Shown here piece after piece: positions 19,000 to 46,538 of a DNA stretch of 64,000 nt. Under the pieces are notes generated by a model, which was not told the DNA's origin, made no database searches, and was given only the letters and a program-made list of their open reading frames with translations. Within the stretch, counting starts at the first letter, position 1; the number at the start of each line of letters is the position of its first letter. This stretch comes from a virus: positions 19,127-83,126 of IMG/VR virus record IMGVR_UViG_3300047508_000265; one strand, written 5' to 3'. Both the position numbers and the translations under genes were made by a program.

Positions 19000-19189
19000 G
19001 GCTTACAGGAAGCAGACAGGTTGGGGGAAGGGTGACGTCCAGAGGCCCCGACAAATTAGTAGAAAAGAGTTCGAGGATAACTGGGATTTGATAGACTGGG
19101 GAAAAGTACCAAGACGATCACAAAGCTTTCTTAAATCTTCTCATGCGCCCGCGGAATCAGATGCATTTCGAAGAGCGACAGGCAAATGA
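18977..19189 (+). CDS. Hypothetical protein
   Basis: GKGD..RP.......DNWD.I motif; coupled to the next gene. Confidence 0.55.
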   Translation: MDDQGEYRAYRKQTGWGKGDVQRPRQISRKEFEDNWDLIDWGKVPRRSQSFLKSSHAPAESDAFRRATGK

Positions 19190-19923
19190 ACCATAGCTGC
19201 ATTGTTCGATCTCATGGGGCAGGGCTGTTCTCAAACATCAACAAAATTCTAGTATGTTCGAGAATTTACGATCATGTGCATGTAGATTGGAGTGTCGTTG
19301 ATCACAATGACGCCGCATACAAATACGGAGGTAGTTTTTACGGCGATTGCTGGAATGTTTTATTCGAACCAACTATTGCGCCCGATCCCCCATTCGATTC
19401 GATTTGGGAATACCCTTTTTACGAAATCACGGCTGGCTGTGCGGGCGTCTTATACCAAAACGAGCAATGGAATTGGAGACAACGATACAACAACGAATGG
19501 AAAAAGCTCACCTGTAAAGTGCAAGGGCTTCCAGTCGAGCCTAATACCGTGGGAGTCTTGATTCGTAGTGAGGCTCTTGGAGGCGAACAACTTTCAGGAC
19601 GAAGTCCTACACTGGAACAATATGCTGCGTCAATCGACAAAAACGCTAATCTGTTCGTTGTATCAAGCGATCAAGAAAGTCTTTCATGGTTTTGCAATCA
19701 GTATCCAAATACGAAATTTACTGAAGGGATTAAACGAAATGCCAAACGTTCCGATCGAGAACAGCACATTCATATTCCGCAAACTAAAGAGGATGCAGTG
19801 CAGGTAATGCAAGAAGTGCTAACTCTAGCAAATTGCCAAACCCTTGTCCATCCAGTTTCAAATATGGCAACCGCGGCGCTCTATATGAATTTGAATCTGA
19901 AAAGTATTTTCGTAAAATCATAA
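19186..19923 (+). CDS. NodZ/O-fucosyltransferase-like (GT-B) glycosyltransferase
   Basis: GAGLFSN, VGVLIR, LFVVSSD, E...LANC..LV...SN...AA. Confidence 0.7.
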   Translation: MNHSCIVRSHGAGLFSNINKILVCSRIYDHVHVDWSVVDHNDAAYKYGGSFYGDCWNVLFEPTIAPDPPFDSIWEYPFYEITAGCAGVLYQNEQWNWRQRYNNEWKKLTCKVQGLPVEPNTVGVLIRSEALGGEQLSGRSPTLEQYAASIDKNANLFVVSSDQESLSWFCNQYPNTKFTEGIKRNAKRSDREQHIHIPQTKEDAVQVMQEVLTLANCQTLVHPVSNMATAALYMNLNLKSIFVKS

Positions 19924-19925
19924 TC

Positions 19926-20570
19926 ATGCTCAACCTATCTAACATAACTTTAGTGTGTTTTGAGGCACGGCATTTCAAACGGGCTCTAGCATTCATGAAT
20001 GACATGTTAGACTTCGCAATCTGGGGCGGCATGCGTTGGTACAACCATCATGATAGCTACAAAGATTTTTGGTATTCTGAACTAGAGGCCCACAAAATCG
20101 TTCATACATCTCACATGATGTATACCCATTTGGATGGGTTTCCTGTTAACTCGGAAGTATGGGACCCAAAATGGTTGGAATATGACTACATTGGCGCACC
20201 TTGGCCTGAAGGTTGGCAACCTTATCGAGTAGGAAACGGCGGCTTTTCTCTTAGAACTAAAAAATTAGCGGCAAGATTAGAAGAATTATCGCAGGGACAG
20301 ACAGATATCGTAAATGATATTCTTGTTAGCGTTACTCATAGAAAACAACTAGAACGAGAGGGCTTCAAATTCGCACCAATCGCAGAAGCAGCAAAATTTT
20401 CTGTAGAATTTGCAGTAGCTGAGACCCCCAAAAAGACTTTTGGTTTTCACGGTTATTGGCCAGACCCTACGCAAACCCCTCCACCATATTTTACTCTCAG
20501 CGGCTGCATGATTCCTAAACCCGATGCAAAAATTGATAGTTGGGATTTCTTTTGCAAAACTAAGAAATGA
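19926..20570 (+). CDS. DUF5672-like glycosyltransferase-associated protein
   Basis: YDYIGAPW...VGNGGFSLR...A.KFSVE...FGFH. Confidence 0.8.
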   Translation: MLNLSNITLVCFEARHFKRALAFMNDMLDFAIWGGMRWYNHHDSYKDFWYSELEAHKIVHTSHMMYTHLDGFPVNSEVWDPKWLEYDYIGAPWPEGWQPYRVGNGGFSLRTKKLAARLEELSQGQTDIVNDILVSVTHRKQLEREGFKFAPIAEAAKFSVEFAVAETPKKTFGFHGYWPDPTQTPPPYFTLSGCMIPKPDAKIDSWDFFCKTKK

Positions 20571-21430
20571 ATATTTACCATCATTCCGGCGATATTGGTG
20601 ACGTAATCGCAAGCATGCCGGTTATGCGCGAATTGGGCGATGGTAAACTAATAATCAGTGAAACCTCTTACCCGCCAGGAAAAAATCCAGCAAGAAGCAT
20701 GCGAGGAAAAAGATTCGAAGCACTGCAGCCAATGTGGGAAGCCGCGCCTTACGTCACTTCAATCGAATGGCAAGACCAACCGAAAGGCGTTACTCACGAC
20801 ATCGGAAGATTTAGAATGGAGGCAGCATGGACAGCAGGGGAAACCTTATACCATTGGCAAGGCAGAGCAATGAAAGTGAACTTGCCTGAAGCGCCGCAAC
20901 GATGGCTGCATGTCGAGGTTCCATACCATGATATGATTGTAATTGGCCGCACTGCCCGTTATCATACTCCTCACTTTCCTTGGCGATTGATAGTTGAAAA
21001 ATTCCATAACAACCTTTTATTTCTGGGTCTGCCGGAAGAATACAAAGCTTTTCGGGAAGAGTTTGGCAAAGTGGAATACCAGCTCACCAAAGATTTGCTG
21101 GAAGCCACCAAGATTATCGCAGGCTCCAAGTTATTTATCGGCAATCAATCTGTTTTGTTCTGGATAGCCGCGGGGCTCGCGCATCATCTGATTCAGGAAA
21201 CCTTTCACCAAATCTATTCACACGATTCCATAGTGCCAAGGCGGAACGCCTTATATGTCAATTCTGCAGAAGATCTGTTATTGGTACATACGACCTTGGG
21301 GCTCAGCACAGACTGGCTGAAAAAATACAATTTCCCAATTTCATCCCGCGTCAATCTCACCACAAGCGCAGGCGATCCCAGAAAAAACTTAACCACTTCC
21401 GCCGAGATATTTGAACTACTAAACTCATGA
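20567..21430 (+). CDS. GT9-like (heptosyltransferase-fold) glycosyltransferase
   Basis: HSGDIGDVI..MP and DLLE...II.GSKLFIGNQS. Confidence 0.7.
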   Translation: MNIYHHSGDIGDVIASMPVMRELGDGKLIISETSYPPGKNPARSMRGKRFEALQPMWEAAPYVTSIEWQDQPKGVTHDIGRFRMEAAWTAGETLYHWQGRAMKVNLPEAPQRWLHVEVPYHDMIVIGRTARYHTPHFPWRLIVEKFHNNLLFLGLPEEYKAFREEFGKVEYQLTKDLLEATKIIAGSKLFIGNQSVLFWIAAGLAHHLIQETFHQIYSHDSIVPRRNALYVNSAEDLLLVHTTLGLSTDWLKKYNFPISSRVNLTTSAGDPRKNLTTSAEIFELLNS

Positions 21431-22083
21431 AAGCTGTTACTTATTTTAACGAAGTGGAAAGTTTACACGATCCTGCCCTGCTTGAATTATGGAAAGCTTC
21501 ATGGGCAAAGTTTGGATGGGAGCCCGTGGTGCTTACTATCAAAGATGCCTTGGAAACTGACCCCGATATGGTGGAACGTTTTCAGAAATCTCCTCTACTA
21601 AAATCCCATCCCGGAAATCCATCCGGTTATGTTTGGGCTTGCTTAGTACGCTGGGTAGCGCAACTTAAAATAAAAGAGCCAAGCCTGCTGCTGGATTGGG
21701 ATGTTATATGTAACGGATACAAACCAGAAGACGCACCGAAAGAAACTAACGATTTTAGACCCGTATTTCTAGCTGGTGGTTTATGTCCATGCGCAGTTGC
21801 AGGAAGACATATGACTTGGCAAATGATTTGTGCTTGGCTAGAATTCGCACCCTTTGCCCCAAACTTTAGCACAGAAGCTTTGGCGAAAGACAACGCAGAC
21901 CAATATGCTATTGCTTACGTAATGCCTAAAGAATGGGCGATCGTCGATCCAAAATCTCCTTGTATAGCATATCAGAACGAAGGCTGGAAAACAGCGCCAA
22001 TGATTCATTTCCCAAATCAAGTAACAAGCTATCCGAGAAGTGAAGTAATTAAACATGAATTAGGGATATTAGGGAACAGTTGA
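21427..22083 (+). CDS. Putative GT-A glycosyltransferase (DxD)
   Basis: W..SW...GWEP.VL, C..RW.A, LLLDWDV, DQ, IHF. Confidence 0.6.
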   Translation: MKAVTYFNEVESLHDPALLELWKASWAKFGWEPVVLTIKDALETDPDMVERFQKSPLLKSHPGNPSGYVWACLVRWVAQLKIKEPSLLLDWDVICNGYKPEDAPKETNDFRPVFLAGGLCPCAVAGRHMTWQMICAWLEFAPFAPNFSTEALAKDNADQYAIAYVMPKEWAIVDPKSPCIAYQNEGWKTAPMIHFPNQVTSYPRSEVIKHELGILGNS

Positions 22084-22571
22084 AAACTCCTTTAAAAATT
22101 CTAGAAAAGAATAAACGCTGGCGACTGCGGCATCCGGTTCAAGTAAAAGCAATAAACCAAAGCTATTATTCAAAAAATTCTAGAAAAATAAAAGCCAAGG
22201 TTCGTAGATACAAAAAACAAAACAAAAAGAAAGTAAACGCATCCAACAAAAAATGGCGAGCAAAGAACAAAACAAAAGTAAAAGAAATAGGCCGAAAATA
22301 CTACTTAAAACACCCCGATAAGGCAAGAACAAATTGCGTTAAAAGACGAGCCTTAAAACGAAAAGCTACAATTGGTGATTTAACAGAAATCGCCAAAATT
22401 TACGCCCGCGCCAGAGAGCTTAGACAATGGTTTAATGTCGTAGTTGATCATAAAATTCCTCTTTCAAAAGGCGGGGCGCATTCACCCGAAAATTTACAAA
22501 TTATTTACGCTTACGAAAACGCTCAAAAACACAACAGTTTAACTTATAAACCTAAAATAATTTTCAAATGA
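22080..22571 (+). CDS. HNH homing endonuclease, family A (VDH..PL.KGGAHS.ENLQIIY...IFK)
   Basis: HNH motif; C-terminus nearly identical to 28777 and 39447. Confidence 0.9.
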   Translation: MKTPLKILEKNKRWRLRHPVQVKAINQSYYSKNSRKIKAKVRRYKKQNKKKVNASNKKWRAKNKTKVKEIGRKYYLKHPDKARTNCVKRRALKRKATIGDLTEIAKIYARARELRQWFNVVVDHKIPLSKGGAHSPENLQIIYAYENAQKHNSLTYKPKIIFK

Positions 22572-22771
22572 TCCCCGAACTTAAAATCACAGAACGGGAA
22601 GATTATATTTGGTTCCGCATCCCTTGGCGCAATTGGTACATGAGGTGTTGCAATTGCCATCTGATACACAGAATTAATCACAAACTTGTTAACGGAAAAC
22701 TATTCTTGCAGGCGATCAGAGAAGATGAGCTAACAAAACAAAATGAGAATACTAAAAATAACTTGGCTTGA
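22568..22771 (+). CDS. Small Zn-finger-like hypothetical protein
   Basis: CCNCHLIH; ATGA-coupled. Confidence 0.55.
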   Translation: MIPELKITEREDYIWFRIPWRNWYMRCCNCHLIHRINHKLVNGKLFLQAIREDELTKQNENTKNNLA

Positions 22772-22982
22772 CAGTATAAGAAACGGAGGATGGCAATCTA
22801 ACCAAGCATATTGCGATGAAGCAGACTACAAGGGCCTTCTTCATACTTCAGTAGGCTATGAAATACAAAACGCCACTCACTCAATCCTTCTCGCCCAAAG
22901 CAAAGCAGAGCACACTACAAATATTTGTGATACAATTCAAATTCCAAAAAGAACTATTATCAAAATCAAAGTTCTAAAATGA
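22743..22982 (+). CDS. Hypothetical phage protein
   Basis: ITWLDS...GW...SVGY...LAQS...IP motif. Confidence 0.65.
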   Translation: MRILKITWLDSIRNGGWQSNQAYCDEADYKGLLHTSVGYEIQNATHSILLAQSKAEHTTNICDTIQIPKRTIIKIKVLK

Positions 22983-24232
22983 CGCCACTTTTTTCAATCC
23001 AAAAAACGCACGTAGCAAAGCTACAAAAAATACTTGATACACACTCGGCAGTCCTTGATTCCTCAGATTGTGGAACGGGGAAGACATATGTCGGAGCAGA
23101 ACTAGCTCGACTTCACAAAGGTCCAGTTCTAGTGGTTGCGCCTTTAGCAACCCTTCCTTTCTGGCGAGCTATTATGAAGGATCGCGGAGTTCCTGCGGGC
23201 TTCATAAATTATGAGAAATTACGCACTGGTAGAACTGAATTTGTAAAGAAAGAGCCAATGCTGTGGAAATGGCAGCTTTCTAATTCGGCTATGATTATCT
23301 TTGATGAGGCGCATCGCCTCAAATCAAGAGACTCCATTATCAGTAAAATCGCCATCGCTGCCAAACCTTACAAGAATATTTTCCTTAGCGCCACGATAGC
23401 AGAGAACCCTCTACACCTTCGCGCTGTAGGATTTCTGCTTGGCTTACACAATCTCAAGAACTATTGGAATTGGTGCCGGATTTTGAAATGCGCTCCAAAT
23501 GGTTGGGGCGGTCTTGAGTTCACTGGAGGTCAAAAAGAACTGCAAAAACTCCACGCACAAATTTATCCCGAACACGGCGATAGAATTTCCCTGACTGACA
23601 TGGCTGACCTGTTTCCTGAAAACCGAATCGTCTATCAAAAAATAGACTTCGGCGATAAAGGAAAAATTCAGGCGTTATATGAGGAAATGGAAGCAGAGCT
23701 TACCGCGCTCAAGGAAACAGCGGAACAAGATAGCAAGGGCGCAGAGGCTTTAACTATCCAGTTGCGCCAAAGGCAAAAAACGGAACTGCTGAAAGTTCCG
23801 ATGTTGGCAGAACGAGCACAAGATTTAGTAGAAGAAGGAATGTCTGTAGTTATCTTCTGTTGCTTCCGAGATACTATTCGCGCCTTGCAGCAACGCCTTC
23901 CCAACGCACCAGCGATAGAAGGAGGCCAGAAACCTGAGGAACGGGAACGAATTAAGCAGGATTTTCAATCAGACAAAACCCCAATCCTTCTCTGTAACGT
24001 CGCCGCCGGAGGCGCGGGAATCTCACTTCATGGAACCAAACCACGAGCAACCCTGATTACCCTTTCTTGGACTGCCCCTGACATCAAACAAGCTCTGGGA
24101 CGAACACATCGGGCTAAAGGTTCGTCCTCTATCCAGTATATTTTGACCTGCAGCGATTCAGTGGAAGAACAATTGGAAGTCGCAGTACGACAGAAACTTG
24201 CGAATATTGAAACACTAAATGTTGGAAATTAA
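22979..24232 (+). CDS. SF2 (SNF2/DEAH-like) helicase
   Basis: GTGKT, DEAH, SAT, G.GISL, QALGRTHR. Confidence 0.9.
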   Translation: MTPLFSIQKTHVAKLQKILDTHSAVLDSSDCGTGKTYVGAELARLHKGPVLVVAPLATLPFWRAIMKDRGVPAGFINYEKLRTGRTEFVKKEPMLWKWQLSNSAMIIFDEAHRLKSRDSIISKIAIAAKPYKNIFLSATIAENPLHLRAVGFLLGLHNLKNYWNWCRILKCAPNGWGGLEFTGGQKELQKLHAQIYPEHGDRISLTDMADLFPENRIVYQKIDFGDKGKIQALYEEMEAELTALKETAEQDSKGAEALTIQLRQRQKTELLKVPMLAERAQDLVEEGMSVVIFCCFRDTIRALQQRLPNAPAIEGGQKPEERERIKQDFQSDKTPILLCNVAAGGAGISLHGTKPRATLITLSWTAPDIKQALGRTHRAKGSSSIQYILTCSDSVEEQLEVAVRQKLANIETLNVGN

Positions 24233-24295
24233 CTGCTTATTTGTAAAAATACTTTTGTGTTATATGCGCTTTTGTAAAATTTAATCACAATAATA

Positions 24296-24324
24296 TTGAC
24301 TTACAGGTTAAAATTTGAGATAAT
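24296..24324 (+). promoter_or_regulatory. Promoter TTGACT-N17-GATAAT, 9 nt before a TTG start
   Basis: Conserved AAAATTTGAGATAATAGAAGA. Confidence 0.75.
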
Positions 24325-24333
24325 AGAAGAACA

Positions 24334-25548: not shown

Positions 25549-25742
25549 GCAAAGCAAATTCATCAATTCAAATCGGCCCCAGCGGATCAATGTTACTTAC
25601 AATCGTATTCGTATTTTTAAAAGTACTCGGATACATTACTTGGTCTTGGTGGTGGGTTTTCTCGCCACTTTGGATTTCCGCAATTATTGGACTCTTAATT
25701 CTAGTAGCAGTAATCGGATTAGCACTATGGGCCGAGTCATGA
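25545..25742 (+). CDS. Small membrane protein
   Basis: LK..G.I.WSWWWVFSPLWI motif common in phages. Confidence 0.75.
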   Translation: MSKANSSIQIGPSGSMLLTIVFVFLKVLGYITWSWWWVFSPLWISAIIGLLILVAVIGLALWAES

Positions 25743-26047
25743 AATGAGCCCACGATACAATTTCTTAGTGTTTATGATTCTGTTAGGATTAGACTTCGGT
25801 CGATCTTACGCAGGTCTATTCGCTACGATAGCAACAGGAATCCTCTTAATAGTCGATATCCTGCCAAGTAAACCCAAATGAAACTACCTAACGAAATATT
25901 CGTAATCAAAGAAAAAGACGGTAATGATTCCTATCTGATCGCCTTTAATTCATTGGATGAAATTCCAATGGACCAAAATGGTGATTCAGTAGGCGTCTAC
26001 CAGCTTCAAGAAACCCGAAAATTAAAAGTAACAACTGAATTAATCTA

Positions 26048-26803
26048 ATGGCAAAGACATCATTCGTAAAGAAAGCAGAAGTAGTAGAATCTACTCCGGA
26101 ATCAGTCACGGATACGACTGTCGCTGTGGCGCAGCCCAAAACGCTCGCAGTGCAACATGAGGGCAAGGATGACATGTTTGGCGAGTGGCTCCCAGGAGAC
26201 TCAAAACTCCCTAGGCTGAACATCAGACAAAAATCCAGTGGTGATGAACTACAGGAGAACTTTGAATTCGGAGACCTTGTATTCGCCAAGAAAATCAAAC
26301 TCGCAGATGAGAATTCAACTGTAACCGTAGTGCCTATTATTGCTGGTAAAGATTACCAGCAGAAGGTGCCATTCGGTGAGGGCCAAGGCGTAGTTTATCC
26401 TACTGCCCAAGCTGTAATCGACAATGGCGGAGTGCTGCAGTATAGCAAAGAGGCTGTAAACGAGCAGACCTACTTCGGTCCGAGAGCGCATATTGAACTT
26501 GCAATTAAGGCGCCGAAAGGCTTGTCGGAAGACGACCTCAACTACTTCCCATTTGAGTTTAATGGCGAAAGTTGGGCGGTCTGCCTGTTCACAGTAGCGT
26601 CTAGCGCTTATACATCATTCGCAAAAGAACTGGAAACACTGCGACGTCATAACGTAATCATGCGCAAAGGATTAATATATGGCCAACTAGAGTTGACTAC
26701 TAAGCAAAGGAATAAACCTGGACAATCATGGTTTATTCCTGTAGCTAAATTAGTCGGTGAAAACCCGCCTGAATTAGTAGAGTTCTTAGAGAAGATTAAA
26801 TAA
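26048..26803 (+). CDS. Putative ssDNA-binding/recombination protein
   Basis: LPRLNI.QK.S, G..VF, WFIP pattern; replication-module position. Confidence 0.55.
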   Translation: MAKTSFVKKAEVVESTPESVTDTTVAVAQPKTLAVQHEGKDDMFGEWLPGDSKLPRLNIRQKSSGDELQENFEFGDLVFAKKIKLADENSTVTVVPIIAGKDYQQKVPFGEGQGVVYPTAQAVIDNGGVLQYSKEAVNEQTYFGPRAHIELAIKAPKGLSEDDLNYFPFEFNGESWAVCLFTVASSAYTSFAKELETLRRHNVIMRKGLIYGQLELTTKQRNKPGQSWFIPVAKLVGENPPELVEFLEKIK

Positions 26804-26849: not shown

Positions 26850-27194
26850 ATGTATTACAAAAGTAAAAAATTTTACAAGACACGGAAACGTTATGCTAAA
26901 ACGCATCGAGTCGAGCTACGAATTAAGCAACGTCAATATAATAGAAAACTAAAAGAAGATATATTTAATCATTATGGAATCGAATGCGCTCACTGTAAAT
27001 TTTCTGATTTACGAGCTTTATCTATCGATCATATTAACGGGGGCGGCACTCAACATAGAAAAAAGTTTAAAAGTCCCTACTCTTTTTACATATGGTTGCG
27101 ACAAAATAAATTTCCAAAAGGGTTTCAAACTCTTTGTATGAATTGCCAATTTATCAAACGACATACAAACAACGAAAGTACCCGAATAAAATGA
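26850..27194 (+). CDS. HNH homing endonuclease, family B
   Basis: HYGIECAHC...IDHINGGG...FYIWL...FPKGFQTLCMNC. Confidence 0.85.
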   Translation: MYYKSKKFYKTRKRYAKTHRVELRIKQRQYNRKLKEDIFNHYGIECAHCKFSDLRALSIDHINGGGTQHRKKFKSPYSFYIWLRQNKFPKGFQTLCMNCQFIKRHTNNESTRIK

Positions 27195-27724
27195 AACTAA
27201 TCGGCATCACAGGACGCAAAAAATCAGGTAAAGATACAGCAGCGCGAGCCCTGATAACAGAAGGCTACTGGCCACTGCGCTTCGCAGGCGGGTTGAAGGC
27301 GATGGTGGCATGCCTACTCACCTACATGGGCATAGAGCCCGCGACCATCGAGAAGATGATCGATGGCGATTTGAAGGAAATGCCTTTTCCATATCTGGAA
27401 GGCAAGTCTTGTCGACAGATTATGCAAACTTTGGGTACAGAATGGGGCAGGGATTGTGTAGGCAGGGATTTATGGGTTCACATTTGCATGGAACGAGCGA
27501 AGTCCTACGACAAGGTTGTCGTTACGGATGTTCGCTTTAAGAATGAGGAGAAAGCAATCAGGGAGGCAGGCGGAAAGATCGTGAAGATTGAACGACCTAC
27601 ATTGGTGAGAGACGATCACCCCTCTGAGGCAATTGACAAAATCCACCCCGATCTAATTATTATGAACACAGGAACAATTAAATACCTACAGGAGAAAATT
27701 ACTGAATATGCGCGAAGGAACTGA
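27191..27724 (+). CDS. Deoxynucleoside monophosphate kinase
   Basis: IGITGRKKSGKDT, FA..LK, RQIMQTLGTEWGR, DVRF.NE, H.SE. Confidence 0.9.
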   Translation: MKLIGITGRKKSGKDTAARALITEGYWPLRFAGGLKAMVACLLTYMGIEPATIEKMIDGDLKEMPFPYLEGKSCRQIMQTLGTEWGRDCVGRDLWVHICMERAKSYDKVVVTDVRFKNEEKAIREAGGKIVKIERPTLVRDDHPSEAIDKIHPDLIIMNTGTIKYLQEKITEYARRN

Positions 27725-28208
27725 GAAATTTAATGACGAAGCTAAAGGCGGCTATTCGTACGCCGAAAAACTTGCTCTGGTAGCACAAGAGGCCATGGAT
27801 CCCTCCGAAATAGGTTTAGAGACCGCAGCACAAGCAAGAGCGAAAATTGTAGACAAGCCGCCTGCGTTAATGAAACTCAGTGACTTCGTGACATTTGAGG
27901 CATCTGTAGTCCCGCCGCAACTCCGCGCTCACTGGGCCTACCAAGATTTAACAATTAAACCCGAGAATATGAAAGCTTGGGAGGCTGATTGGTGTGAACA
28001 GCACAAAAATGAATACGCTATCCAAGGCCTTCTCCACAGTGGCGGCTTGGCCGCACAAGTTGGCCAACTCTTCACAGACCCGATACTGGGATTCTGTGAA
28101 ATGTTGCGCAAAGCTGCAGAATTACTAGAAAAGAAATATGAAGAGCTTAAAAAGACAGACCCCAACCCTATCATCACAAGAGACGAAGCTACTAAAGAAA
28201 GCAGTTAG
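27708..28208 (+). CDS. Hypothetical protein
   Basis: 166-aa ORF in operon. Confidence 0.65.
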   Translation: MREGTEKFNDEAKGGYSYAEKLALVAQEAMDPSEIGLETAAQARAKIVDKPPALMKLSDFVTFEASVVPPQLRAHWAYQDLTIKPENMKAWEADWCEQHKNEYAIQGLLHSGGLAAQVGQLFTDPILGFCEMLRKAAELLEKKYEELKKTDPNPIITRDEATKESS

Positions 28209-31327: not shown

Positions 31328-31921
31328 ATGAGAAAACCAGGAATTGAAACTTTTACTGGCAAAAGAGTTTTGATTAAAAACACAAAACCGAAGAGCATTA
31401 ACATATATGATATTGCTCGCGGACTGGCCATGACAGTTAGGTTCAATGGACAACTCGATGATTTCTTCTGCGTAGGACAGCATTGTATAAATGTAAAAAA
31501 CATGCTGAAATCAATGGGCGAGCCCCCGCCTGTTCAAATGTATGGACTGCTTCACGACGCTCCTGAATTCGCTTTAGGCGATTTAGTACGACCGGTAAAA
31601 ATAATGCTTCCCTCCTTTAAAAAACTAGAGACAGGAGTGATGAAGGCGGTGTTAAAGGCACTGGGACTCCGCAAACAACTTGCTCTAACCAAGGAGCAAC
31701 TCAAAAGTGTGAAGTTCGCCGACAACTATCAGGTAATCATTGAACGTCTAGCTCTTAAATCTGCAGCATGCAAAAAGAACGGTTGGAATGATTTTGGTCC
31801 TCAACCAAGAGAACTAGGAATGGACCCCAAGGCTAAAAGGAAAAAACTAATCTGCATGAGTTGGAAAACGGCCGAAAAGAAGTATCTTAAGGAATTCAAA
31901 AAACTGAAAGCGGAATTATGA
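31328..31921 (+). CDS. HD-domain phosphohydrolase (YfbR/YfdR-like 5'-deoxynucleotidase)
   Basis: DIA..L...RFNG....V.QH...LLHDA.E...GD..P.K. Confidence 0.85.
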   Translation: MRKPGIETFTGKRVLIKNTKPKSINIYDIARGLAMTVRFNGQLDDFFCVGQHCINVKNMLKSMGEPPPVQMYGLLHDAPEFALGDLVRPVKIMLPSFKKLETGVMKAVLKALGLRKQLALTKEQLKSVKFADNYQVIIERLALKSAACKKNGWNDFGPQPRELGMDPKAKRKKLICMSWKTAEKKYLKEFKKLKAEL

Positions 31922-37904: not shown

Positions 37905-38795
37905 ATGACTATTTGCCTGCATTGTATGGTTAAAAATGGTCGCTGGACTTTGCCTGCGCTGTTTGAGTCTTGTGAGAAGTTTGTTGATAACGCTGTGATT
38001 TTAGATACCGGCAGTACAGACGGTACTCGAAGATGGCTACGTGAGCAGTCCATAATTCCAACAGAAGTGATAGAGCAACCTTTCGTGAATTTCGGCAAGA
38101 CCCGAACCATTGGAATGGCCCACGCCCGCGGGCAAGCTGACTGGCTTCTCCTGCTGGACTCTGATATGGTGCTTCGCTGCGACAAGCCGGTAGAGGAAAT
38201 TAAGGCTTCGATCGATCCCACGGCCAAAGCCTACATGCTCCAAATGGATCAACCGGTAACCTATTGGAATACTCGCCTGGTTAGCGGCAAGGAATTGTGG
38301 GAATACAAGGGAGTGACTCATGAGTATCTGGATCGTTCCGCGGGTTCGCCTAAGTTGGAAGGTCTTATGGTTGAGCATCACTTCAATCATGGACCACAGA
38401 AGTTCGAACGCGATCTTCGTCTGCTTTCTGCGGACGTTTCACGAGATCCGTATGATGCTAGAACAATTTTTTATCTTGCTCAGACTTTGCGGGATATGGG
38501 CCACACTCTTCCTGCGATTTGGTACTATCAGTTACGTGCTGCGATGGGCGGATGGGAAGAGGAGAAATTCTATTCGTTATATGAGGCAGCAAGATTGGCG
38601 GGAGACCCAAGAGCTATGGAAGCTGCTTATAAATTTCGACCTAGTCGCGCTGAAACTGCTGATTGGTTGGCGAATTATTATAGAACTCAGGGGGACAATA
38701 TGTGTACCGGAAAGTGGGAAAACATAAGGGCCAATATCCCTCTTCCTCCCGATATACTGTTCCTTAACACCAAAAGTTATGGCCCCCGAAACTAG
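37905..38795 (+). CDS. GT2 glycosyltransferase with TPR repeats
   Basis: ICL...VKN, ILDTGSTDGT, NFG..R, LLLDSD, GVTHE, R..FYLAQT.RD TPR helices. Confidence 0.88.
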   Translation: MTICLHCMVKNGRWTLPALFESCEKFVDNAVILDTGSTDGTRRWLREQSIIPTEVIEQPFVNFGKTRTIGMAHARGQADWLLLLDSDMVLRCDKPVEEIKASIDPTAKAYMLQMDQPVTYWNTRLVSGKELWEYKGVTHEYLDRSAGSPKLEGLMVEHHFNHGPQKFERDLRLLSADVSRDPYDARTIFYLAQTLRDMGHTLPAIWYYQLRAAMGGWEEEKFYSLYEAARLAGDPRAMEAAYKFRPSRAETADWLANYYRTQGDNMCTGKWENIRANIPLPPDILFLNTKSYGPRN

Positions 38796-38997: not shown

Positions 38998-39148
38998 TTG
39001 ACAGCCAAGGAATAGTTTTAGCAGAATATGAGGATTTGAAAGACGCCGAGTTATTTACGGATGGTATAGAGACTGAAGAAACCTTGGATATTGTAGATAC
39101 CTGCCCGCATCCACCAAATCTTTTTCTTAGTCATGGGAATTTAACACA

Positions 39149-39466
39149 ATGATACTTGATGAATACCAAGAGCGAGCTTATGACTTGGCGCTTCCTACGA
39201 CCAAAAATATAACTTACATGTTGCTTGGAGTAACTAATGAATCTGGGGAGGCCGCTGGGAAATTGAAGAAAGCGCTTCGAGGCGATAAGAAACTAGCCGC
39301 GATAACTGAAGATATCGCACAGGAATTGGGTGATGTGCTTTGGTATGTATCCGGAGCCGCTAGAGTTCTAGGGTATTCTTTGGATGAAATCGCCTGTATG
39401 AATTTGAAAAAATTGGAAGATAGACAATTGAGAGGTAAACTGCAAGGTGACGGAGACGAACGCTAA
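39149..39466 (+). CDS. MazG-like NTP pyrophosphohydrolase
   Basis: LG...E.GE...K.KK..R...ELGDVLWY...N..KL..R..RG...G.GD.R. Confidence 0.9.
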   Translation: MILDEYQERAYDLALPTTKNITYMLLGVTNESGEAAGKLKKALRGDKKLAAITEDIAQELGDVLWYVSGAARVLGYSLDEIACMNLKKLEDRQLRGKLQGDGDER

Positions 39467-39938: not shown

Positions 39939-41839
39939 TTTTATCAGAAAAGTTTCTCAAGCCTTATAAAACAGCTAAACCGCCCTTCGGGTTTAATGGT
40001 CTTGGGCATGTTGTATATCGCCGGACCTACAGTCGTTTTAAAGAGGACGGTCAGTTAGAAGATTGGTGGGAAACTTTGCAGCGTTGTGTGGAGGGCGCTC
40101 AAAAGATTGGTGCGGAATACACAGTTGAAGAAGCAGAAAAACTTTATAACCATTTATTTAATCTTAGATGCTCGTTCGCCGGAAGGTCTTTGTGGCAGTT
40201 CGGGGCTCCTACACTTGACAAACTCGGCGCGGCATCGCTACTTAATTGTTGGTTTGTTCCGATAACCAAACCTTATGACTTCTGTTTTTTATTCGATAAT
40301 CTTATGCTCGGAGGAGGCTGCGGATTTTCCATCCGTCGTCAAGATGTTCACGAACTTCCAAGAGTTAAACGCGGAGTTTCGATTACTCATCAAAAATGCA
40401 GCGACGCCGATTTCATTGTTCCCGATTCCCGTGAAGGGTGGGTACGGTTATTGCGCCGAGTTCTTAGGTCCTACTTTGAAACCGGTACAAGTTTTAATTA
40501 CTCGACTATTCTTGTGCGACCTCGCGGTGAAAGGATAGCGGGATTCGGGGGGATTGCTAGTGGGCCTATCAATCTTATAGAAGGTGTAGAGTCTATTTGT
40601 AAAGTTTTACGAGCACGAGAGGGCAAAAAACTTAGGTCTATCGATGCTCTTGATATTTGTAATATAATAGGAAGCATAGTTGTTTCGGGTAATGTTAGAC
40701 GTTCTGCTGAAGTTGCGCTTTTTGACCCTGATGATGTCCTTCTTTTACGAGCTAAACGTTGGGATTTAGGAGACGTTCCCAATTTTCGCGCAATGTCTAA
40801 TAATAGTCTTTACGCTGATAGTTATGATCATATTATGGATCATGTGTGGCAAACATATGAGGGAAACGGCGAAGCGCTTGGGTTGTTTAATCTTCCCCTT
40901 GCTCAAAGCCAAGGACGATTAGGAGAGGAGCGAGACGATAATTGTGAGGGAGCTAATCCTTGTATGGAGGTTCCTCTTGCGCCTTATGAATGTTGTAATC
41001 TTGCAGAACTATTTTTAAATAATATCGAATCGCCTGAACAATTGTATGAGTGCGCCCGACTTCTCTATAAAACCCAAAAAGCAATTGCTGCTGCTCCCTA
41101 TCACCATCCCGAAACAAATAGAGTGGTCCACCGAAATATGCGATTGGGACTTGGTGCCACTGGAATCTGTCAAGTTTCGAAAAAACTCGAATGGCTCGAT
41201 AAGTGTTATAGAGACCTTCGGAAGTTCGATAGGGAATGGAGCAAGAAACGAGGATGGCCAGAGTCCATCAAACTTACCACCATTAAACCGAGCGGTACGT
41301 TGTCCCTCCTCGCGGGTTCCACGCCGGGTTGTCATCCAGCCTACTCGCAGTACTATCTTCGTCGTGTCCGATTAAGCTCCTCTGATTCCCTGATTCCCTG
41401 CCTCCGTGAAGCTGGCTACAATGTAACTTTTCAGGAGAATCAGGACGGTTCCGTGAATCGTGACACTCTGGTTGTTGAGTTTCCTTGTGAGGCTGGGGAA
41501 GGAGCGAAGCTCGCCTCTGATATGACTGCGGTGGACCAGCTTGAGTTAGTGAAGAAGCTTCAGACGATATGGGCTGATAACGCCGTCTCAGTTACTATTT
41601 ATTATGAACATAGCGAGTTAGACGCCATACGCGCTTGGCTGAAGGAACATTATGCTTCCTCAATTAAATCCGTGAGCTTTCTCCTGAAGCAGGGCCATAA
41701 CTTCAAACAGGCGCCTTATGAGGCGATAGATAAGACAACCTATGATATGCTAATGCAGAAAATTAAACCGATAAAAAATATCTCGCAGGGCGAACTAATA
41801 GAGGAGGAGTGTGCAGGAGGAAAATGCCCAGTTCGCTAA
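39935..41839 (+). CDS. nrdJ: Class II (B12-dependent) ribonucleotide reductase
   Basis: GNVRRSA, NPCME, CNLAE, TTIKPSGT, C-terminal CAGGKCP; no beta subunit nearby. Confidence 0.92.
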   Translation: MILSEKFLKPYKTAKPPFGFNGLGHVVYRRTYSRFKEDGQLEDWWETLQRCVEGAQKIGAEYTVEEAEKLYNHLFNLRCSFAGRSLWQFGAPTLDKLGAASLLNCWFVPITKPYDFCFLFDNLMLGGGCGFSIRRQDVHELPRVKRGVSITHQKCSDADFIVPDSREGWVRLLRRVLRSYFETGTSFNYSTILVRPRGERIAGFGGIASGPINLIEGVESICKVLRAREGKKLRSIDALDICNIIGSIVVSGNVRRSAEVALFDPDDVLLLRAKRWDLGDVPNFRAMSNNSLYADSYDHIMDHVWQTYEGNGEALGLFNLPLAQSQGRLGEERDDNCEGANPCMEVPLAPYECCNLAELFLNNIESPEQLYECARLLYKTQKAIAAAPYHHPETNRVVHRNMRLGLGATGICQVSKKLEWLDKCYRDLRKFDREWSKKRGWPESIKLTTIKPSGTLSLLAGSTPGCHPAYSQYYLRRVRLSSSDSLIPCLREAGYNVTFQENQDGSVNRDTLVVEFPCEAGEGAKLASDMTAVDQLELVKKLQTIWADNAVSVTIYYEHSELDAIRAWLKEHYASSIKSVSFLLKQGHNFKQAPYEAIDKTTYDMLMQKIKPIKNISQGELIEEECAGGKCPVR

Positions 41840-41978
41840 CTTATAAAATGTTGGAGCATATTTCTAAGGAACTTAAGAAATGCAAAATGCCGCCGGTGTA
41901 TAACTCGAAAGGCGAACCTTGTTATGCTTTGCGGTTTTCTGGTACAAAAAGACAATATCGTAAATTGATGAAGAAGTT

Positions 41979-42650
41979 ATGCACGACTACCTAGTCTTCT
42001 GTTCCACCCGCCACGGCCAAACGAATGCCGAGCTTGGCATCTACGGCGCTGATCGGAACTTCGATCTTTGCATTCATGACTATTCGAGTTGGGGCACAGA
42101 TCCACAGGAAAAGTTTAAACGATCAGAATATTGGTTTACTCGTCCAAAGGCTGAGAAGTTAGAAACGGCAGCTATGGTGCTTCCTCATTTGCCTGTAAGT
42201 TACAAGTACTATGCTTTTTTAGACGACGATCTTACGATTACAACTGACCAGCTTAATCGTTTGTTTCTTGTTGGTGATTCCCTTGGTCTCGATCTTTATC
42301 AACCGGCATTGACAGGAAATAGTTATGGCTCGTGGAAACATTTGTTTCAATATGAGCTTCCAAATTGTCCTGCTGTTCGGGATGTAGACTTTGTTGAGAT
42401 AATGATGCCTTTTATGAGCAAGGCGTTTTTAGACAAGCATATTGGAATGTTTGATTGCAACATTTCCGGTTGGGGCCTCGACCTGTATGATTGGGGCAAG
42501 GGCTATCTAGTAAATTCTATCGCCGTTGGACACTATCGTAAACCAGAAAGGCGTAATCGTATACTTCGCAACGGCCTCACACCTGCACAAGAACTTTGGA
42601 TAATGACTAAGATATACAACCCAGATGACTGTAGTTTGCCGCCATGTTAA
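41979..42650 (+). CDS. DUF707-like putative GT-A protein
   Basis: Y.Y..FLDDDL, LDL.QPALT, FVEIMMP.MS, GWGLD..W. Confidence 0.75.
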   Translation: MHDYLVFCSTRHGQTNAELGIYGADRNFDLCIHDYSSWGTDPQEKFKRSEYWFTRPKAEKLETAAMVLPHLPVSYKYYAFLDDDLTITTDQLNRLFLVGDSLGLDLYQPALTGNSYGSWKHLFQYELPNCPAVRDVDFVEIMMPFMSKAFLDKHIGMFDCNISGWGLDLYDWGKGYLVNSIAVGHYRKPERRNRILRNGLTPAQELWIMTKIYNPDDCSLPPC

Positions 42651-42864
42651 TGCCTTATCAAGACCCAGATGATTACGTGAGTTTTTTCGACCAACATACC
42701 TGTCGTTTTCATGAAATAGCTCCTGGCGAACCTTATGCTGGCTGCACATGCAGCACAGATTGGGGACAACGAAAGGCTACGCCGGAAGAGCGAGAAGCCA
42801 ATAGGAAGAGTCGTCTAGAGCGGGAAGAACGAAGAGCTAGGACTTATCGAGCAGTAGGATTTTT

Positions 42865-43647
42865 ATGCAGTCAGCCTTAGTCGTAGCTTGGCACAATCCA
42901 AAACAGATCGCCGAGTTTAAGGAGGCGTGGAAGATTCAGTCTGGTCACCAGGTCTATTTTCAGCAGGATAAGGACAAAGAGGGCTGTGCCGTAACGAAGA
43001 ACAAAGGAATTCGTCGAGCGTATGATGACGGCGCTGAGATGATCGTTGTTTTAGATGATGACTGTTATCCTAAAGACGAACACTATACTCTGCAGAATTT
43101 GTTTGAGGATTATGAATCCGCCTTGAAGCCGCAGAAGGTTTTGATGTATTATGCCATTACTCAGCCTCGTTCTCGTGGAACGCCGTATTTAAACCGGACT
43201 ATTCAAATGCCGGTTGCTGCGGCTTTGGGGTATGCTTTAAAGTTCCCAGATTTGGATGCCGCTTCTTCTTTGGTTCTCGGCAGCCAGATTGAGATTGGAA
43301 TGCTGAAACAACCAATACACGGAAGGTATTTTAGTGGTTGCGGAATGAATTTCGCCTTTCGTCGTGAATGGATTGATTGTGTTCAATTTATCAACATTCC
43401 CAGATTCGACGACATTTGGATGTTTTTAATCTTCCAGAAAATCGCCTACGCGAAAGGATTTTGTTTTTCTTTGGAAGGTCCTGATGTAATTCATCAGCGT
43501 CAATCCAACATTTGGAGAAATTTACAAGACGAAGTCAAATATCTTGAGATAAATGAAACTCTTTGGCAGACGATTCATGCTGCTCCTTCTTGCTTGTCCG
43601 CTTCGGAATTGAGGGATAAACTTTTTCTAAGTTATCCTCGAACATGA
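42865..43647 (+). CDS. GT75/RGP-like protein (UDP-arabinopyranose mutase family)
   Basis: LDDDCYP, RGTPY, PDLDA, CGMNFAFRRE, RFDDIW...K, H...SN...NL..E. Confidence 0.75.
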   Translation: MQSALVVAWHNPKQIAEFKEAWKIQSGHQVYFQQDKDKEGCAVTKNKGIRRAYDDGAEMIVVLDDDCYPKDEHYTLQNLFEDYESALKPQKVLMYYAITQPRSRGTPYLNRTIQMPVAAALGYALKFPDLDAASSLVLGSQIEIGMLKQPIHGRYFSGCGMNFAFRREWIDCVQFINIPRFDDIWMFLIFQKIAYAKGFCFSLEGPDVIHQRQSNIWRNLQDEVKYLEINETLWQTIHAAPSCLSASELRDKLFLSYPRT

Positions 43648-43790
43648 GTTAGTCTTGGATTTCGTTTCTTAGCGCCAGCACTCGCCTTACGAGAACTTGC
43701 GGCAAGGATTTTGTTTGCCGTTGCTTGTGAGTAATTTTCGCGTCTTGCGATCGATTGAGAGGCTTTCCGGAAACCTGGGTGCTTGTTCAT
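43632..43790 (-). CDS. 52-aa basic small protein (below ORF-track cutoff)
   Basis: MNKHPGFRKASQSIARRENYSQATANKILAASSRKASAGAKKRNPRLTHVRG. Confidence 0.6.
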   Translation of the reverse strand: MNKHPGFRKASQSIARRENYSQATANKILAASSRKASAGAKKRNPRLTHVRG

Positions 43791-43927
43791 ATTGAGGGAA
43801 GCACGGGCGGATCAAGTTTATATACAATGAAAATTGTAATTAAAGAAGCCAGCCATATTCGGAAGGTTTCGCAATAAACTTGTCTAAACGGAATTTTCCA
43901 ATAATCTTTTATCATGTGTTTACTTTC

Positions 43928-44000
43928 TCGGGTTGGCAAGATTCGAACTTGCGATCTGATGCTCCCAAGGCATCCGCGCTGGCCGCTACGCTACAACCCG
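43928..44000 (-). tRNA. tRNA-Pro (anticodon UGG), CCA not encoded
   Basis: Acceptor CGGGUUG/CAACCCG, anticodon stem GAUGC/GCAUC with loop CUUGGGA, T-arm GCAAG-UUCGAAU-CUUGC. Confidence 0.93.
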
Positions 44001-44132
44001 AGGAAGGAAACCCTCGGTTGCATCCGGGCGGCAATGGTTGTGTCTTGAGTTCGCGCATAAGATTAGGATCGGGTTCTGAGCCCATTTGTCTAGACATTTC
44101 TTTTAGGAATAAATTTTCGAATGTTTCTCGGT

Positions 44133-44561
44133 TCACAGTCCTAGTTTTTGCAGAACTTCTTGAACAGTCCTGTCCGTTAACTCATTCATGCGGACGTCAT
44201 CGTCTGCGTCATCGTCGTCCTGCGTGAGTTCTTTCAAGTGATCTTGAGCCGCTTTCGCGCGCGCTTCTAACTCCACCAGAACTGCACGACTTTCGCGTGT
44301 GCGCGTGGTCGGGTCGGAATTGAGTTCGCTTGTGAAATGCTCCAATAGCACTGTGAGCGCCCATACATCGTCGGCAGCTTTAATAATTTCGTCGTCTTGG
44401 CGCGAATCTTCTGCGATCCATCCGCGAAGGAAGCCGATGCCTGCTGTGTTTTCAATTCGAGTGAACTCGCCTGCGTGAATCAGATTGTCTCTCGCGTTTT
44501 TACGCTCTGCTTTTCTATCATGGCCTTCCGGTTGTAGTATGCTGCCTGTTTGTTCGCTCAT
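44133..44561 (-). CDS. Hypothetical helical protein
   Basis: 142-aa ATG ORF in the leftward block. Confidence 0.65.
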   Translation of the reverse strand: MSEQTGSILQPEGHDRKAERKNARDNLIHAGEFTRIENTAGIGFLRGWIAEDSRQDDEIIKAADDVWALTVLLEHFTSELNSDPTTRTRESRAVLVELEARAKAAQDHLKELTQDDDDADDDVRMNELTDRTVQEVLQKLGL

Positions 44562-44914
44562 ATTAGCACCAAGTTATATAAGTATTCATCCAAATTGGAT
44601 TTGGGTATGGATTGAAAGGAGGCGGATCGTAGGGCCCTCTTCCGCAATAAGGGCTTCGACCGCAGTGCGGACAGATATGCTGGTTTGGGGTATTTGTGAT
44701 AGTGGTGGAATCCACTTTTACATCGCTGCCAGTTGTAGTATTCATTTACAAGTTTCTGGTGTACAAGGTATCATAATACTTTTAAGACCGCAAACAATAA
44801 GACAACGCCCGCAAATTAAGTTTTTCCCATCCATCATTGGTTGTGGGTGTTCACAGTCATAAGGGCAGTGAGCATGCCAGCAATTGTGTTCTTCATACCA
44901 TTCATATTTACTCA

Positions 44915-45763
44915 TTAACCAATACCAATAAAATTATCTTCGCTTTCCTCCACCAAGGCGCGCATTCTTTCTATATCGCCGAAAGCAGCAGAATATCTGC
45001 CTGCTAAATGACCGTTGCTTTCCGCCACAGGCTGGCCTTCCCAAACTCGATCTTTATACTCAACCCACGGCAGAGTGCCAGATTTGCATAGCATCGGATG
45101 CCAGAGATGAAGAACCTGATTAGGCGTTGTTTTATGCCGCCAGTAGAGCATGTCGGTTGCGCGCATTGCGGAGTGATCTTCGCCGCCCCAGCCGCGAAAT
45201 CTGCGATCCCAACAATGAAAAGCTTCTCGGGGTATAATTTGGATCATAGCGCCATACCAGTGTCCATGTTTTGATCCGGACCAATGATGGCGGTGATGAT
45301 GGTGATGATGCCCGTGTTCATCTTCATCGATTTCATGAGGAGGTGTCGGAAATTGATAGGGGCAACAGGGATCGGAGTCTAGAACGCGTTGGGAAGCGGC
45401 ATCGGTTAATCTAAAGAATTTTCGGTAAGGGACGAACCATATACGCTTGTTACGACGTCTTGCTCGTCTTATCTCCTCGGCACATTTCAGGACGACGTCA
45501 GCGTCGATATAACAATCCACATCCACGATGATAAAGATATCGCCTGTAGCTCTCTTAGCACCGTCATTTACAGCTACTGATTTGGAAAACGGACGCCACC
45601 ATCTACGATCTTGCCCTCGAATAATTTGGGCTCCCGGCAGTTGGCATTTCCAATACTTTTTCATCCATCGGAAATTTTCGTCCTGACGTTTAAATTTCTT
45701 GGATCGCCTGAACGGGATGATGATCGACAATCCGTGACCTTTTCTATGGTTGCTAAAGATCAT
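44915..45763 (-). CDS. GT2/GT7-like glycosyltransferase with poly-His insert
   Basis: SIIIPFR, FSKS.A.N.G, IIVDVD, D.RF.GWGGED, HLWH; ATG 45763 overlaps the end of the upstream gene. Confidence 0.85.
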   Translation of the reverse strand: MIFSNHRKGHGLSIIIPFRRSKKFKRQDENFRWMKKYWKCQLPGAQIIRGQDRRWWRPFSKSVAVNDGAKRATGDIFIIVDVDCYIDADVVLKCAEEIRRARRRNKRIWFVPYRKFFRLTDAASQRVLDSDPCCPYQFPTPPHEIDEDEHGHHHHHHRHHWSGSKHGHWYGAMIQIIPREAFHCWDRRFRGWGGEDHSAMRATDMLYWRHKTTPNQVLHLWHPMLCKSGTLPWVEYKDRVWEGQPVAESNGHLAGRYSAAFGDIERMRALVEESEDNFIGIG

Positions 45764-46538
45764 GTAGTTCCTTTTCCAAGATTTTGTAGGCATCGAATAT
45801 CGCAAAACGCGTATCTTCTATTGGCCATCTTGAAGGTTCAGTCATTTTTCCAGGTTCAAAAGGGGTATTTATAGAGGCGCTGTAGTCGCGGAATTTGAAG
45901 TCATAGCCTTCAGTTGTGTTAAGCAACTTAGGCGACATTTCAACTCGGCGAGGAATTGCAAAGGCATCCGCGGTAATCATGCCGTGTAGCGAGGAGGTTA
46001 CAATTCGCCTGCAGGCACCGATCTCTCTTAGAATTGTAAGAGGATCACCTCTTGGGCTAATTACTTGTATGGTAGGGTGAGTGCCGAATGAACGAAACAT
46101 CTGGATAAATCGTGGAACCAACTCATCGTCTTTCCAATGAGGTACGATTCCCAGGTCCCATTTCTTCTCTTGCCACCCAACTAGTTCATCTGCTAAGAGG
46201 CCAGGATCGCCGAGGGCGAAGTTTCCTTTTACACCATGAGCAGAGAGCGGGCCGCGCAGAGCTAGGATTGTAGCGTTTGATAATTCAATATTAGAATTTT
46301 CTTTCAGCCTGCCTGCGCCGCAGATGTAGCCGGTCCATTTGGGAGGAAGGTGTTCTAGGACGGAGCCAACTGTTATGATAGAGGCATCGCCTATGGCGCC
46401 CCATTCAAGATCGGCATCGCAAAAGTGGTCTAGTAACAAAGGCGCCAGGGCATCTCCGAAGTTACTAACTCCCTTCCACCAGTAGGCTTTGAGAGAGGCT
46501 AAAGGTAGGCCAGGAATGATAGGTCTGACGTTTGACAT
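45753..46538 (-). CDS. Polysaccharide pyruvyl transferase family protein
   Basis: NFGD.L.P, GSVL, RGPLS, GDPGLL, GIVPH, SSLHG..I.ADA. Confidence 0.88.
   Translation of the reverse strand: MSNVRPIIPGLPLASLKAYWWKGVSNFGDALAPLLLDHFCDADLEWGAIGDASIITVGSVLEHLPPKWTGYICGAGRLKENSNIELSNATILALRGPLSAHGVKGNFALGDPGLLADELVGWQEKKWDLGIVPHWKDDELVPRFIQMFRSFGTHPTIQVISPRGDPLTILREIGACRRIVTSSLHGMITADAFAIPRRVEMSPKLLNTTEGYDFKFRDYSASINTPFEPGKMTEPSRWPIEDTRFAIFDAYKILEKELHDL

Follow-up and report, generated by a model that had tools for sequence, protein, structure and literature searches.

Virion proteins glycosylated by phage-encoded enzymes are already known. Mycobacteriophage virion glycosylation was reportedly described by Freeman et al. 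in Cell Host Microbe in 2023, and the enzyme sets of these phages are small, with two to four members. According to one summary, the mycobacteriophage glycans are carried on the C-terminal ends of capsid and tail-tube proteins (PMC12619734). Virus-encoded pyruvylated virion glycans are known as well, from the Mimivirus fibril glycan cluster R135-L143, which includes the pyruvyltransferase L143 and accounts for pyruvylated glycans on virion surface proteins (PMC10117803), and Thr of the G-P-T collagen repeats of BclA3 is a proven O-glycosylation site (PMC7157674). DNA is a further target: all documented phage DNA glycosylation begins from the product of a thymidylate-synthase (TS) homolog or of a 5mYOX/TET enzyme (PMC13326640, 10.1101/2023.12.21.572611, PMC13229309). 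TS homologs make 5-hydroxymethylcytosine (5hmC), 5-hydroxymethyluracil (5hmU) and the recently described 5-hydroxycytosine (PMC13326640), and the 5mYOX/TET enzymes provide a route of their own to DNA glycans (10.1101/2023.12.21.572611, PMC13229309). Here we analyze nine genes for predicted glycan-acting enzymes in an uncultured soil-metagenome phage, carried on a stretch of 64,000 nt (hereafter the window; bases 19127-83126 of the 83,126-bp IMG/VR record IMGVR_UViG_3300047508_000265), to which the coordinates below refer.

Glycosylation of virion proteins is the leading reading of this gene set; we give it a probability of about 0.4, and it best explains the distribution of a peptide motif, TGATG, among the phage proteins. 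The record has a 127-bp overlap between its ends (terminal repeats) and is rated 100% complete. Its minus-strand half holds morphogenesis genes, including collagen-like tail fibers (PHROG tail-fiber families, E down to 6e-42), and its plus-strand half holds a helicase, an exonuclease, a T4 gp1-like deoxynucleoside monophosphate (dNMP) kinase, PolA, a DUF5906 primase/helicase-like protein, MazG, ribonucleotide reductase (RNR) and many HNH endonucleases. The phage is a very divergent tailed phage: its PolA (family A polymerase) shares at most 25% identity with anything in 50,697 phage genomes, and a query of 20 kb for near-identity against the same number of phage records returned nothing. A search for sequencing runs listed one DNA run, from a soil metagenome that probably represents the sample of origin, and no RNA run.

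Nine enzyme genes at three loci

All nine open reading frames (ORFs) that the initial annotation had called glycan-acting enzymes are present, and profile or fold evidence supports the call for seven of them: a FUT8/NodZ-like GT-B enzyme, a DUF5672 protein, a GT9-like enzyme, two GT2 glycosyltransferases, a DUF707-family protein and a polysaccharide pyruvyl transferase. Of the other two, the RGP-like protein is borderline and the product of the gene at 21427 has no profile match. Direct Pfam or PHROG support exists for five (the DUF5672 gene, the GT2 genes at 37905 and 44915, the pyruvyl transferase gene and, marginally, the RGP-like gene at 42865). As had also been claimed, no transmembrane segment is apparent: the maximum 19-residue Kyte-Doolittle mean does not exceed 1.53 in any of the nine proteins, which are soluble by this measure. 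The genes lie at three loci, namely a cassette at 19186-22083, three genes flanking RNR (37905, 41979 and 42865) and a convergent pair (44915/45753), and the closest Logan and NCBI relatives reach up to 73% identity, with values of 73%, 67% and 58% on contigs of 32-51 kb.

The cassette is translationally coupled via ATGA overlaps and runs on into the next gene, an HNH endonuclease. This endonuclease gene (22080-22571, plus strand) overlaps the end of the cassette by 4 nt, and two sister HNH genes precede PolA and RNR. The first cassette gene (19186-19923, plus strand) had been called NodZ/fucosyltransferase-like. Its sequence matches no Pfam family at all (E up to 0.1), no PHROG and, in PDB sequence and profile searches, no fucosyltransferase, but the fold bears the call out. 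An AlphaFold2 (AF2) model, built like that of the GT9-like protein from an alignment of metagenomic homologs, has a pLDDT of 95.5 and is matched by Foldseek to FUT8 (E 7e-7, probability 1.0, TMq 0.59-0.61) as well as to NodZ, plant FUT1 and POFUT1, which identifies a GT-B enzyme of the fucosyltransferase superfamily. R127, E134, R184 and H194 are invariant among members of the family, which comprises 44 metagenomic homologs, all lacking Pfam domains, and is represented at 20 IMG/VR loci. The protein founds a virus-rich family without a Pfam model. Two loci, L022 and L023 (loci and whole records are designated L and G, respectively), encode a 30%-identity homolog of its C-terminal two-thirds, and L022 is a contig labeled as a giant-virus metagenome-assembled genome.

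The second gene (19926-20570, plus strand; start ATG 19926 in an ORF that opens at TTG 19833) belongs to the DUF5672 family as predicted (PF18922, E 1e-19, 71.2 bits against a cut-off of 24.4). Synechococcus phages and marine viruses carry homologs; no documented glycan activity is known for DUF5672, for which the literature search gave one incidental paper. The start of the third gene (20567-21430, plus strand) overlaps the preceding stop (ATGA). Pfam, including Glyco_transf_9, and PDB sequence and profile searches yielded no match to its sequence. Its AF2 model (pLDDT 88.3) is nevertheless matched by Foldseek to the GT9 structure 3tov, to WaaC and WaaF and to the protein heptosyltransferase TibC (E 1e-7), so that the predicted GT9-type GT-B (heptosyltransferase) fold is confirmed. 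We found 61 homologs of this protein, some fused to Methyltransf_24 and some encoded in Chitinophagaceae and Sediminibacterium genomes, and none in the 50,697 phage records.

The last cassette gene (21427-22083, plus strand) encodes a virus-specific protein. The protein itself, 13 close homologs and ten more distant ones from viruses all lack a match in Pfam or PDB, as do the profiles derived from them, and an hhalign comparison of the family with the TAGT (TET-associated glycosyltransferase) protein of L037 gave a probability of 0.2%. The family conserves an N-terminal W..SW...GWEP, a RW.A...GGG..D.DV block containing a D-x-D, and a C-terminal His (conserved residues W22, S25, W26, G30, W31, D90, D92 and H194). 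This pattern fits a metal-dependent GT-A enzyme, and we therefore treat the protein as a putative GT-A.

On the RNR side, the gene at 37905-38795 (plus strand) encodes a GT2-family glycosyltransferase with a helical C-terminal half (PF00535, 31.2 bits against 23.3; phrog_13126, 3e-20). The GT2 part of the proposed GT2-TPR assignment is sound, the protein carrying a D-x-D, whereas the TPR part is unsupported, with TPR_17 reaching only E 0.078. The IMG/VR scan found no relative of this gene. The gene at 41979-42650 (plus strand) had been called DUF707-like; its direct score is below the cut-off (PF05212, 14.9 bits against 24.1), but the assignment is supported by transitivity, as 31 of 40 sampled homologs out of the 1118 relatives in the representative library match PF05212 (best 9e-14). 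Some of these relatives are fused to GT90, GT2 or CgtA domains; PDB sequence and profile searches with the protein gave no meaningful match. The third gene (42865-43647, plus strand) encodes an RGP/GT75-like GT-A enzyme with a DDD motif, and here the earlier call is borderline: PF03214 scores 23.5 bits (E 3.9e-5), just below the cut-off of 23.8, over positions 91-285 of 342, a match by which mutase and transferase activity are indistinguishable. Other matches of this protein are to GT2 (8e-4) and to TAGT, at only 14 bits.

The convergent pair consists of a GT2-like "galactosyl transferase" gene (44915-45805, minus strand, likely start ATG 45763) and a polysaccharide pyruvyl transferase gene (45753-46634, minus strand, likely start ATG 46568 or 46538). 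The former scores 26.9 bits with PF00535, above the gathering score of 23.3, and matches phrog_1721 (5e-12); DSD and DVD motifs are visible in the translations of the two GT2 genes of the phage. This protein also contains a His-rich tract, HGHHHHHHRHH. The pyruvyl transferase assignment stands as well (PF04230, 30.2 bits against 25.3), over positions 120-272 of 280 of the profile only; the gene has no relative in the IMG/VR scan. The pyruvyl transferase gene corresponds to gp300 and the GT2-like gene to the neighboring gp301 of Tunturi_5 (53-59% and 50% identity, respectively; L050:11980-13718), a 308-kb jumbo phage of Acidobacteriota (Tunturiibacter), in which both are annotated as "galactosyl transferase" and listed among moron/auxiliary metabolic genes. 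For gp300 that annotation is probably wrong, given that its homolog here matches the polysaccharide pyruvyl transferase family.

Soluble or peripheral proteins themselves, enzymes of the GT9, NodZ-type, GT2 and pyruvyl-transferase families normally use acceptors that are lipid-linked or lipo-oligosaccharides. For this reason the missing transmembrane segments leave room for remodeling of host envelope glycans, and an action on host lipid-linked glycans during lytic growth is plausible. The soluble enzymes would then work at the inner membrane face on host lipid-linked intermediates (lipopolysaccharide (LPS) core, exopolysaccharide or capsular polysaccharide, cell-wall polymer units) and alter the cell surface in lytic infection, for example by blocking superinfection or the sticking of progeny to debris. 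The bacterial homologs of the GT9-like enzyme favor this explanation, as does the pyruvyl-transferase/GT2 pair, which is common to the unrelated Tunturi_5 and behaves as a mobile accessory module. On the other hand, the genome contains no priming phosphoglycosyl transferase, flippase, polymerase or Gtr-type membrane protein, the families of the genes at 19186 and 21427 are mainly viral and lack a Pfam model, and the confinement of the TGATG motif to virion proteins would be left unexplained. Taken together, we consider host remodeling plausible but rather unlikely. Its classical form, lysogenic conversion of the Gtr type, looks unlikely because these membrane components are missing and no tyrosine integrase is found in the genome, in a search that did not extend to serine recombinases. 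As to the host, we saw no Shine-Dalgarno-like sequence 5' of any of the nine enzyme starts (e.g. 19165-19188, 20546-20569), which together with the Chitinophagaceae homologs of the GT9-like enzyme hints at a Bacteroidota-type host.

Candidate acceptors and the state of the phage DNA

The TGATG motif is confined to minus-strand structural genes and does not occur in any of about 100 other ORFs. The three collagen-like fiber genes contain 11, 15 and 13 copies; one of them (3667-6714, minus strand; PHROG tail-fiber match, 6e-42), with 60 G-x-T triplets and 13 TGATG, is a candidate acceptor. Three further candidates, all on the minus strand, are found outside the fibers. A scaffold-/decoration-like protein (11647-12939) has an 80-aa N-terminal Thr/Gly/Ala tract with 5 TGATG, which is neither collagen nor a strict Gly-x-y repeat. 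A capsid-like protein (9500-10666) carries an internal SATGATG and a C-terminal GDTGCTGA, its one TGATG having a chance of 0.0011 by composition. Finally, a 128-aa protein of the structural module (779-1165) ends in IATGATGP (chance probability 0.0014). The codons of the isolated copies are unlike those of the fiber repeats, and the isolated copies are therefore not recent DNA copies of the latter. In related loci, the TGATG-type motif is seen in fibers only. The capsid-like protein shares 25% identity (E 8e-7) with a 403-aa protein of L037; a 339-aa protein of the same locus was rejected as the homolog.

According to the virion-glycosylation reading, the phage would possess a cytoplasmic glycosylation system spread over the three loci. 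With nucleotide sugars taken from the host, its soluble enzymes would initiate an O-linked glycan on Thr residues of virion proteins and elongate it, probably at the G-x-T collagen-like fibers and at the TGATG-type motifs of the capsid-like, scaffold/decoration-like and 128-aa proteins. Finally, the pyruvyl transferase would add a negatively charged ketal as a cap. Acceptor, sugars, order of steps and the participation of all nine enzymes in one pathway are what we infer here. Two of the proteins retrieved by Foldseek, POFUT1 and TibC, are protein O-glycosyltransferases. The initial annotation had also described the glycan as furanose-containing, which is based on the borderline RGP match, and as branched, which is purely inferred. 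A stronger version of the proposal would be that TGATG/G-x-T constitutes a portable O-glycosylation sequon, present in fibers and in head-associated, capsid-like and small tail-module proteins and read by a nine-enzyme cytoplasmic pathway, which includes two virus-specific families without a Pfam model and produces a pyruvylated, anionic glycan coat; this version we put forward with considerable reserve.

If the DNA were instead the acceptor, a modified base serving as handle would be expected, and the absence of an enzyme producing it matters because documented DNA glycosylation starts from a TS-homolog or 5mYOX/TET product. The initial annotation had noted the lack of a hydroxymethylase or TET-type oxygenase in the window, and this holds well beyond it: six-frame searches covering the entire complete genome gave no TS homolog (PF00303), ThyX (PF02511), TET/JBP (PF12851) or TGT, and tblastn of the genome with the L036 TET, L037 ParB and L037 TAGT proteins returned nothing. 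The best TAGT score, 14 bits against a cut-off of 27.5, falls within the RGP-like gene.

Restriction-site counts provide an independent test. Among all 256 tetramers, none is more depleted than GTAC, CGCG and GGCC, and GTAC has 84 copies in the whole genome where 201 are expected (z -8.2). CTCGAG, GAGCTC, GCCGGC and TCGCGA have no copies at all, with 8-11 expected for each, and CAGCTG has one against 10 expected. When hexamers of comparable expectation are considered, 5 of 51 palindromic ones are seen at most once, against none of 3758 non-palindromic ones (Fisher 3.5e-10). Fully hypermodified genomes, such as those of T-even phages, are not expected to need site avoidance. Avoidance of palindromes this strong implies that the DNA is exposed to type II enzymes where sites occur; as a signature of restriction-cuttable DNA it argues against wholesale hypermodification, though not against sparse, sequence-specific marks.

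DNA hypermodification would require that one of the unannotated ORFs, for instance that at 26048-26803 or that at 27708-28208, next to the dNMP kinase gene, encode a handle enzyme belonging to a new family. The 251-aa product of the former has neither a Pfam match nor a phage homolog. Several features keep this explanation alive. All nine enzyme genes are embedded in the replication module with the helicase, exonuclease, PolA and RNR genes. The T4 gp1-like dNMP kinase (27134-27724, plus strand; PF21448, E 1.2e-19) and the MazG-type nucleotide pyrophosphohydrolase (39149-39466, plus strand; PF03819, E 1.7e-7), both overlooked in the initial annotation, resemble, together with a weak HD/YfbR-like match in the profile scan (31328-31921, plus strand), the toolkit of base-replacing phages (PMC13326640), the modifying enzyme itself being absent. 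Documented DNA glycans, moreover, reach three sugars and include heptose and furanoses (PMC13326640, 10.1101/2023.12.21.572611). The DNA of this genome gave a clean short-read assembly, which speaks weakly against modification. MazG and dNMP kinases are also found in phages with ordinary DNA. With no handle enzyme in a complete genome and with restriction sites avoided, we lowered our estimate for DNA as the target, which we now hold to be quite improbable.

Gene neighborhoods in related loci

Comparison with related loci connects two of the enzyme loci. The family of the putative GT-A enzyme (21427) directly adjoins RGP-like homologs (43-49% identity) in L024, L025, L055 and L058, which are four independent contigs with 47-64% GC and both gene orders, whereas the two genes lie 20 kb apart in the phage studied here. 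In L024 the next genes after the pair are one for Methyltransf_24 and one for GT2, the latter adjoining a terminase-like gene. As these families are neighbors in four other contigs, the cassette and the RNR-side cluster, at least through these two genes, are functionally linked.

This conserved pairing bears on the possibility that there is no single pathway, the enzymes being independent accessory modules with possibly mixed targets and "nine enzymes, one glycan" an artefact of counting. The modules do have separate histories: L004, the only true relative among the 20 IMG/VR loci of the 19186 family, retains the 19186 homolog alone of the nine genes, the pyruvyl-transferase/GT2 pair is common only to Tunturi_5, the GT2 gene at 37905 lacks an IMG/VR relative, and HNH homing genes are scattered between the enzyme genes. 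Against this stand the translational coupling of the cassette and the adjacency just described, by which two loci cooperate. We judge a collection of independent modules unlikely, although a mixed or multi-target set takes up most of the probability left over by the other readings.

The homologs also occur near head genes. At 13 of the 26 loci, homologs of the genes for the 604-aa and 712-aa packaging proteins are found no more than a few kb from the 21427-family gene and share its strand. The "TerL" label of the 604-aa gene has as its only basis an L037 homolog matching phrog_2, and the "portal" label of the 712-aa gene is based on size and gene order; PDB searches with both were negative. 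In the group L034-L049, 21427-like, GT9-like and S-adenosylmethionine methyltransferase genes stand between scaffold-like and capsid-like genes, and GATGATG collagen fibers lie downstream of the 21427/GT9-like block in L036-L038, L042 and L044. We had taken glycosyltransferase homologs in head-gene blocks as clear support for virion modification, and withdrew this argument once ParB-TET-TAGT genes were found in the same blocks.

L036 (1103-3268), and likewise L042 and L044, present a TerL, ParB-like, Tet_JBP and TAGT cassette ahead of a portal-sized gene. In L037/L038 (2096-3638), a ParB-like gene is accompanied by a strong TAGT match (E 4e-37) without TET, and the L038 record (G032, complete, 61 kb) contains no TET/JBP or thymidylate-synthase homolog anywhere despite its TAGT. 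5mYOX pathways are known to co-occur with glycosyltransferases (31%), ParB (27%), terminases (19%) and O-methyltransferases (10.1101/2023.12.21.572611, PMC13229309). The phages of L036, L042 and L044 are likely to glycosylate 5hmU or 5hmC. All three carry 21427-like genes, and L042 and L044 carry GT9-like genes too. For DNA as the target, such co-occurrence counts in favor, and the complete G032, with ParB-TAGT and no recognizable TET or TS, indicates that hidden handles may exist.

Several observations thus weigh against glycosylation of virion proteins. No result names protein as the acceptor, and no nucleotide-sugar synthesis gene is found among the ORFs scanned. All nine genes stand among replication and nucleotide-metabolism genes, outside the late structural operon. 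DNA-glycan clusters often adjoin terminase or structural genes and use LPS-type enzymes, heptose transfer included (10.1101/2023.12.21.572611, PMC13229309). The head-gene blocks described above contain ParB-like genes, to which L036, L042 and L044 add a Tet_JBP oxygenase and TAGT, and the 21427-like and GT9-like homologs of these TET/TAGT phages may decorate DNA. The complete record G003, which holds the closest 21427/RGP-like cluster with a methyltransferase and a GT2 gene, has neither TET nor TS nor collagen, and the loci of the 19186 family show no collagen repeat within at most 10 kb on either side.

Whole-record searches of the genomes carrying these families found TET in 3 of 42, TS in 3 of 33 and collagen in 10 of 33. 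Collagen-like sequence is present in G010, the whole record of the 19186-family locus L006, and absent from G003. Gene neighborhood alone leaves the target of glycosylation unsettled. Glycosylation of virion proteins, as proposed in the initial annotation, retains in its favor the lack of a handle enzyme and of a tyrosine integrase, the avoidance of restriction sites, the confinement of the motif to virion genes and the 21427/RGP-like pair, whereas the comparative context cuts both ways.

Comparison with described systems

Should the virion-glycosylation reading be correct, the system would be richer by a wide margin than any other glycosylation system known from tailed phages, and the first to include a pyruvyl transferase; soil phages would join mycobacteriophages and giant viruses as carriers of virion glycan coats, and a candidate peptide sequon would be at hand. 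What would be new is the enzyme set, in number and in kind, for a tailed phage of 83 kb, together with this candidate sequon and two virus families without profiles. Current profile libraries miss these two widespread virus-borne families, that of the FUT8/NodZ-like enzyme at 19186 and that of the putative GT-A at 21427, the latter with its conserved RGP-like partner. That the same glycosyltransferase families occur both alongside TET/TAGT cassettes and in their absence cautions against inferring DNA or protein targets from neighborhood alone.

The system resembles phage DNA-glycan clusters in its several soluble glycosyltransferases, related to those of LPS and teichoic acid synthesis, near polymerase, helicase and terminase genes, and in its dNMP kinase and MazG-type enzyme; it differs from them in that the complete genome has no handle enzyme, TAGT is matched at only 14 bits and restriction sites are avoided. 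With BclA/BclA3 and SgtA (PMC7157674) it shares G-x-T collagen repeats, whose Thr is O-glycosylated there by a soluble glycosyltransferase. There, in bacterial spores, the glycosyltransferase gene adjoins the gene of its substrate, whereas enzymes and fibers belong to different modules here. Like Mimivirus, the phage encodes a set of several glycosyltransferases together with a pyruvyl transferase; Mimivirus, however, is a giant eukaryotic virus whose cluster comes with nucleotide-sugar synthesis enzymes, as opposed to the dispersed genes of an 83-kb tailed phage.

Compared with the mycobacteriophages, which infect actinobacteria as this phage does not, the set is larger and more varied, with about nine enzymes predicted from their genes, including a pyruvyl transferase and fucosyltransferase-, GT9-, DUF5672-, DUF707- and RGP-like proteins. 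Both systems have phage-encoded soluble glycosyltransferases in common, and here, too, the capsid-like and 128-aa proteins bear candidate motifs at their C-terminal ends.

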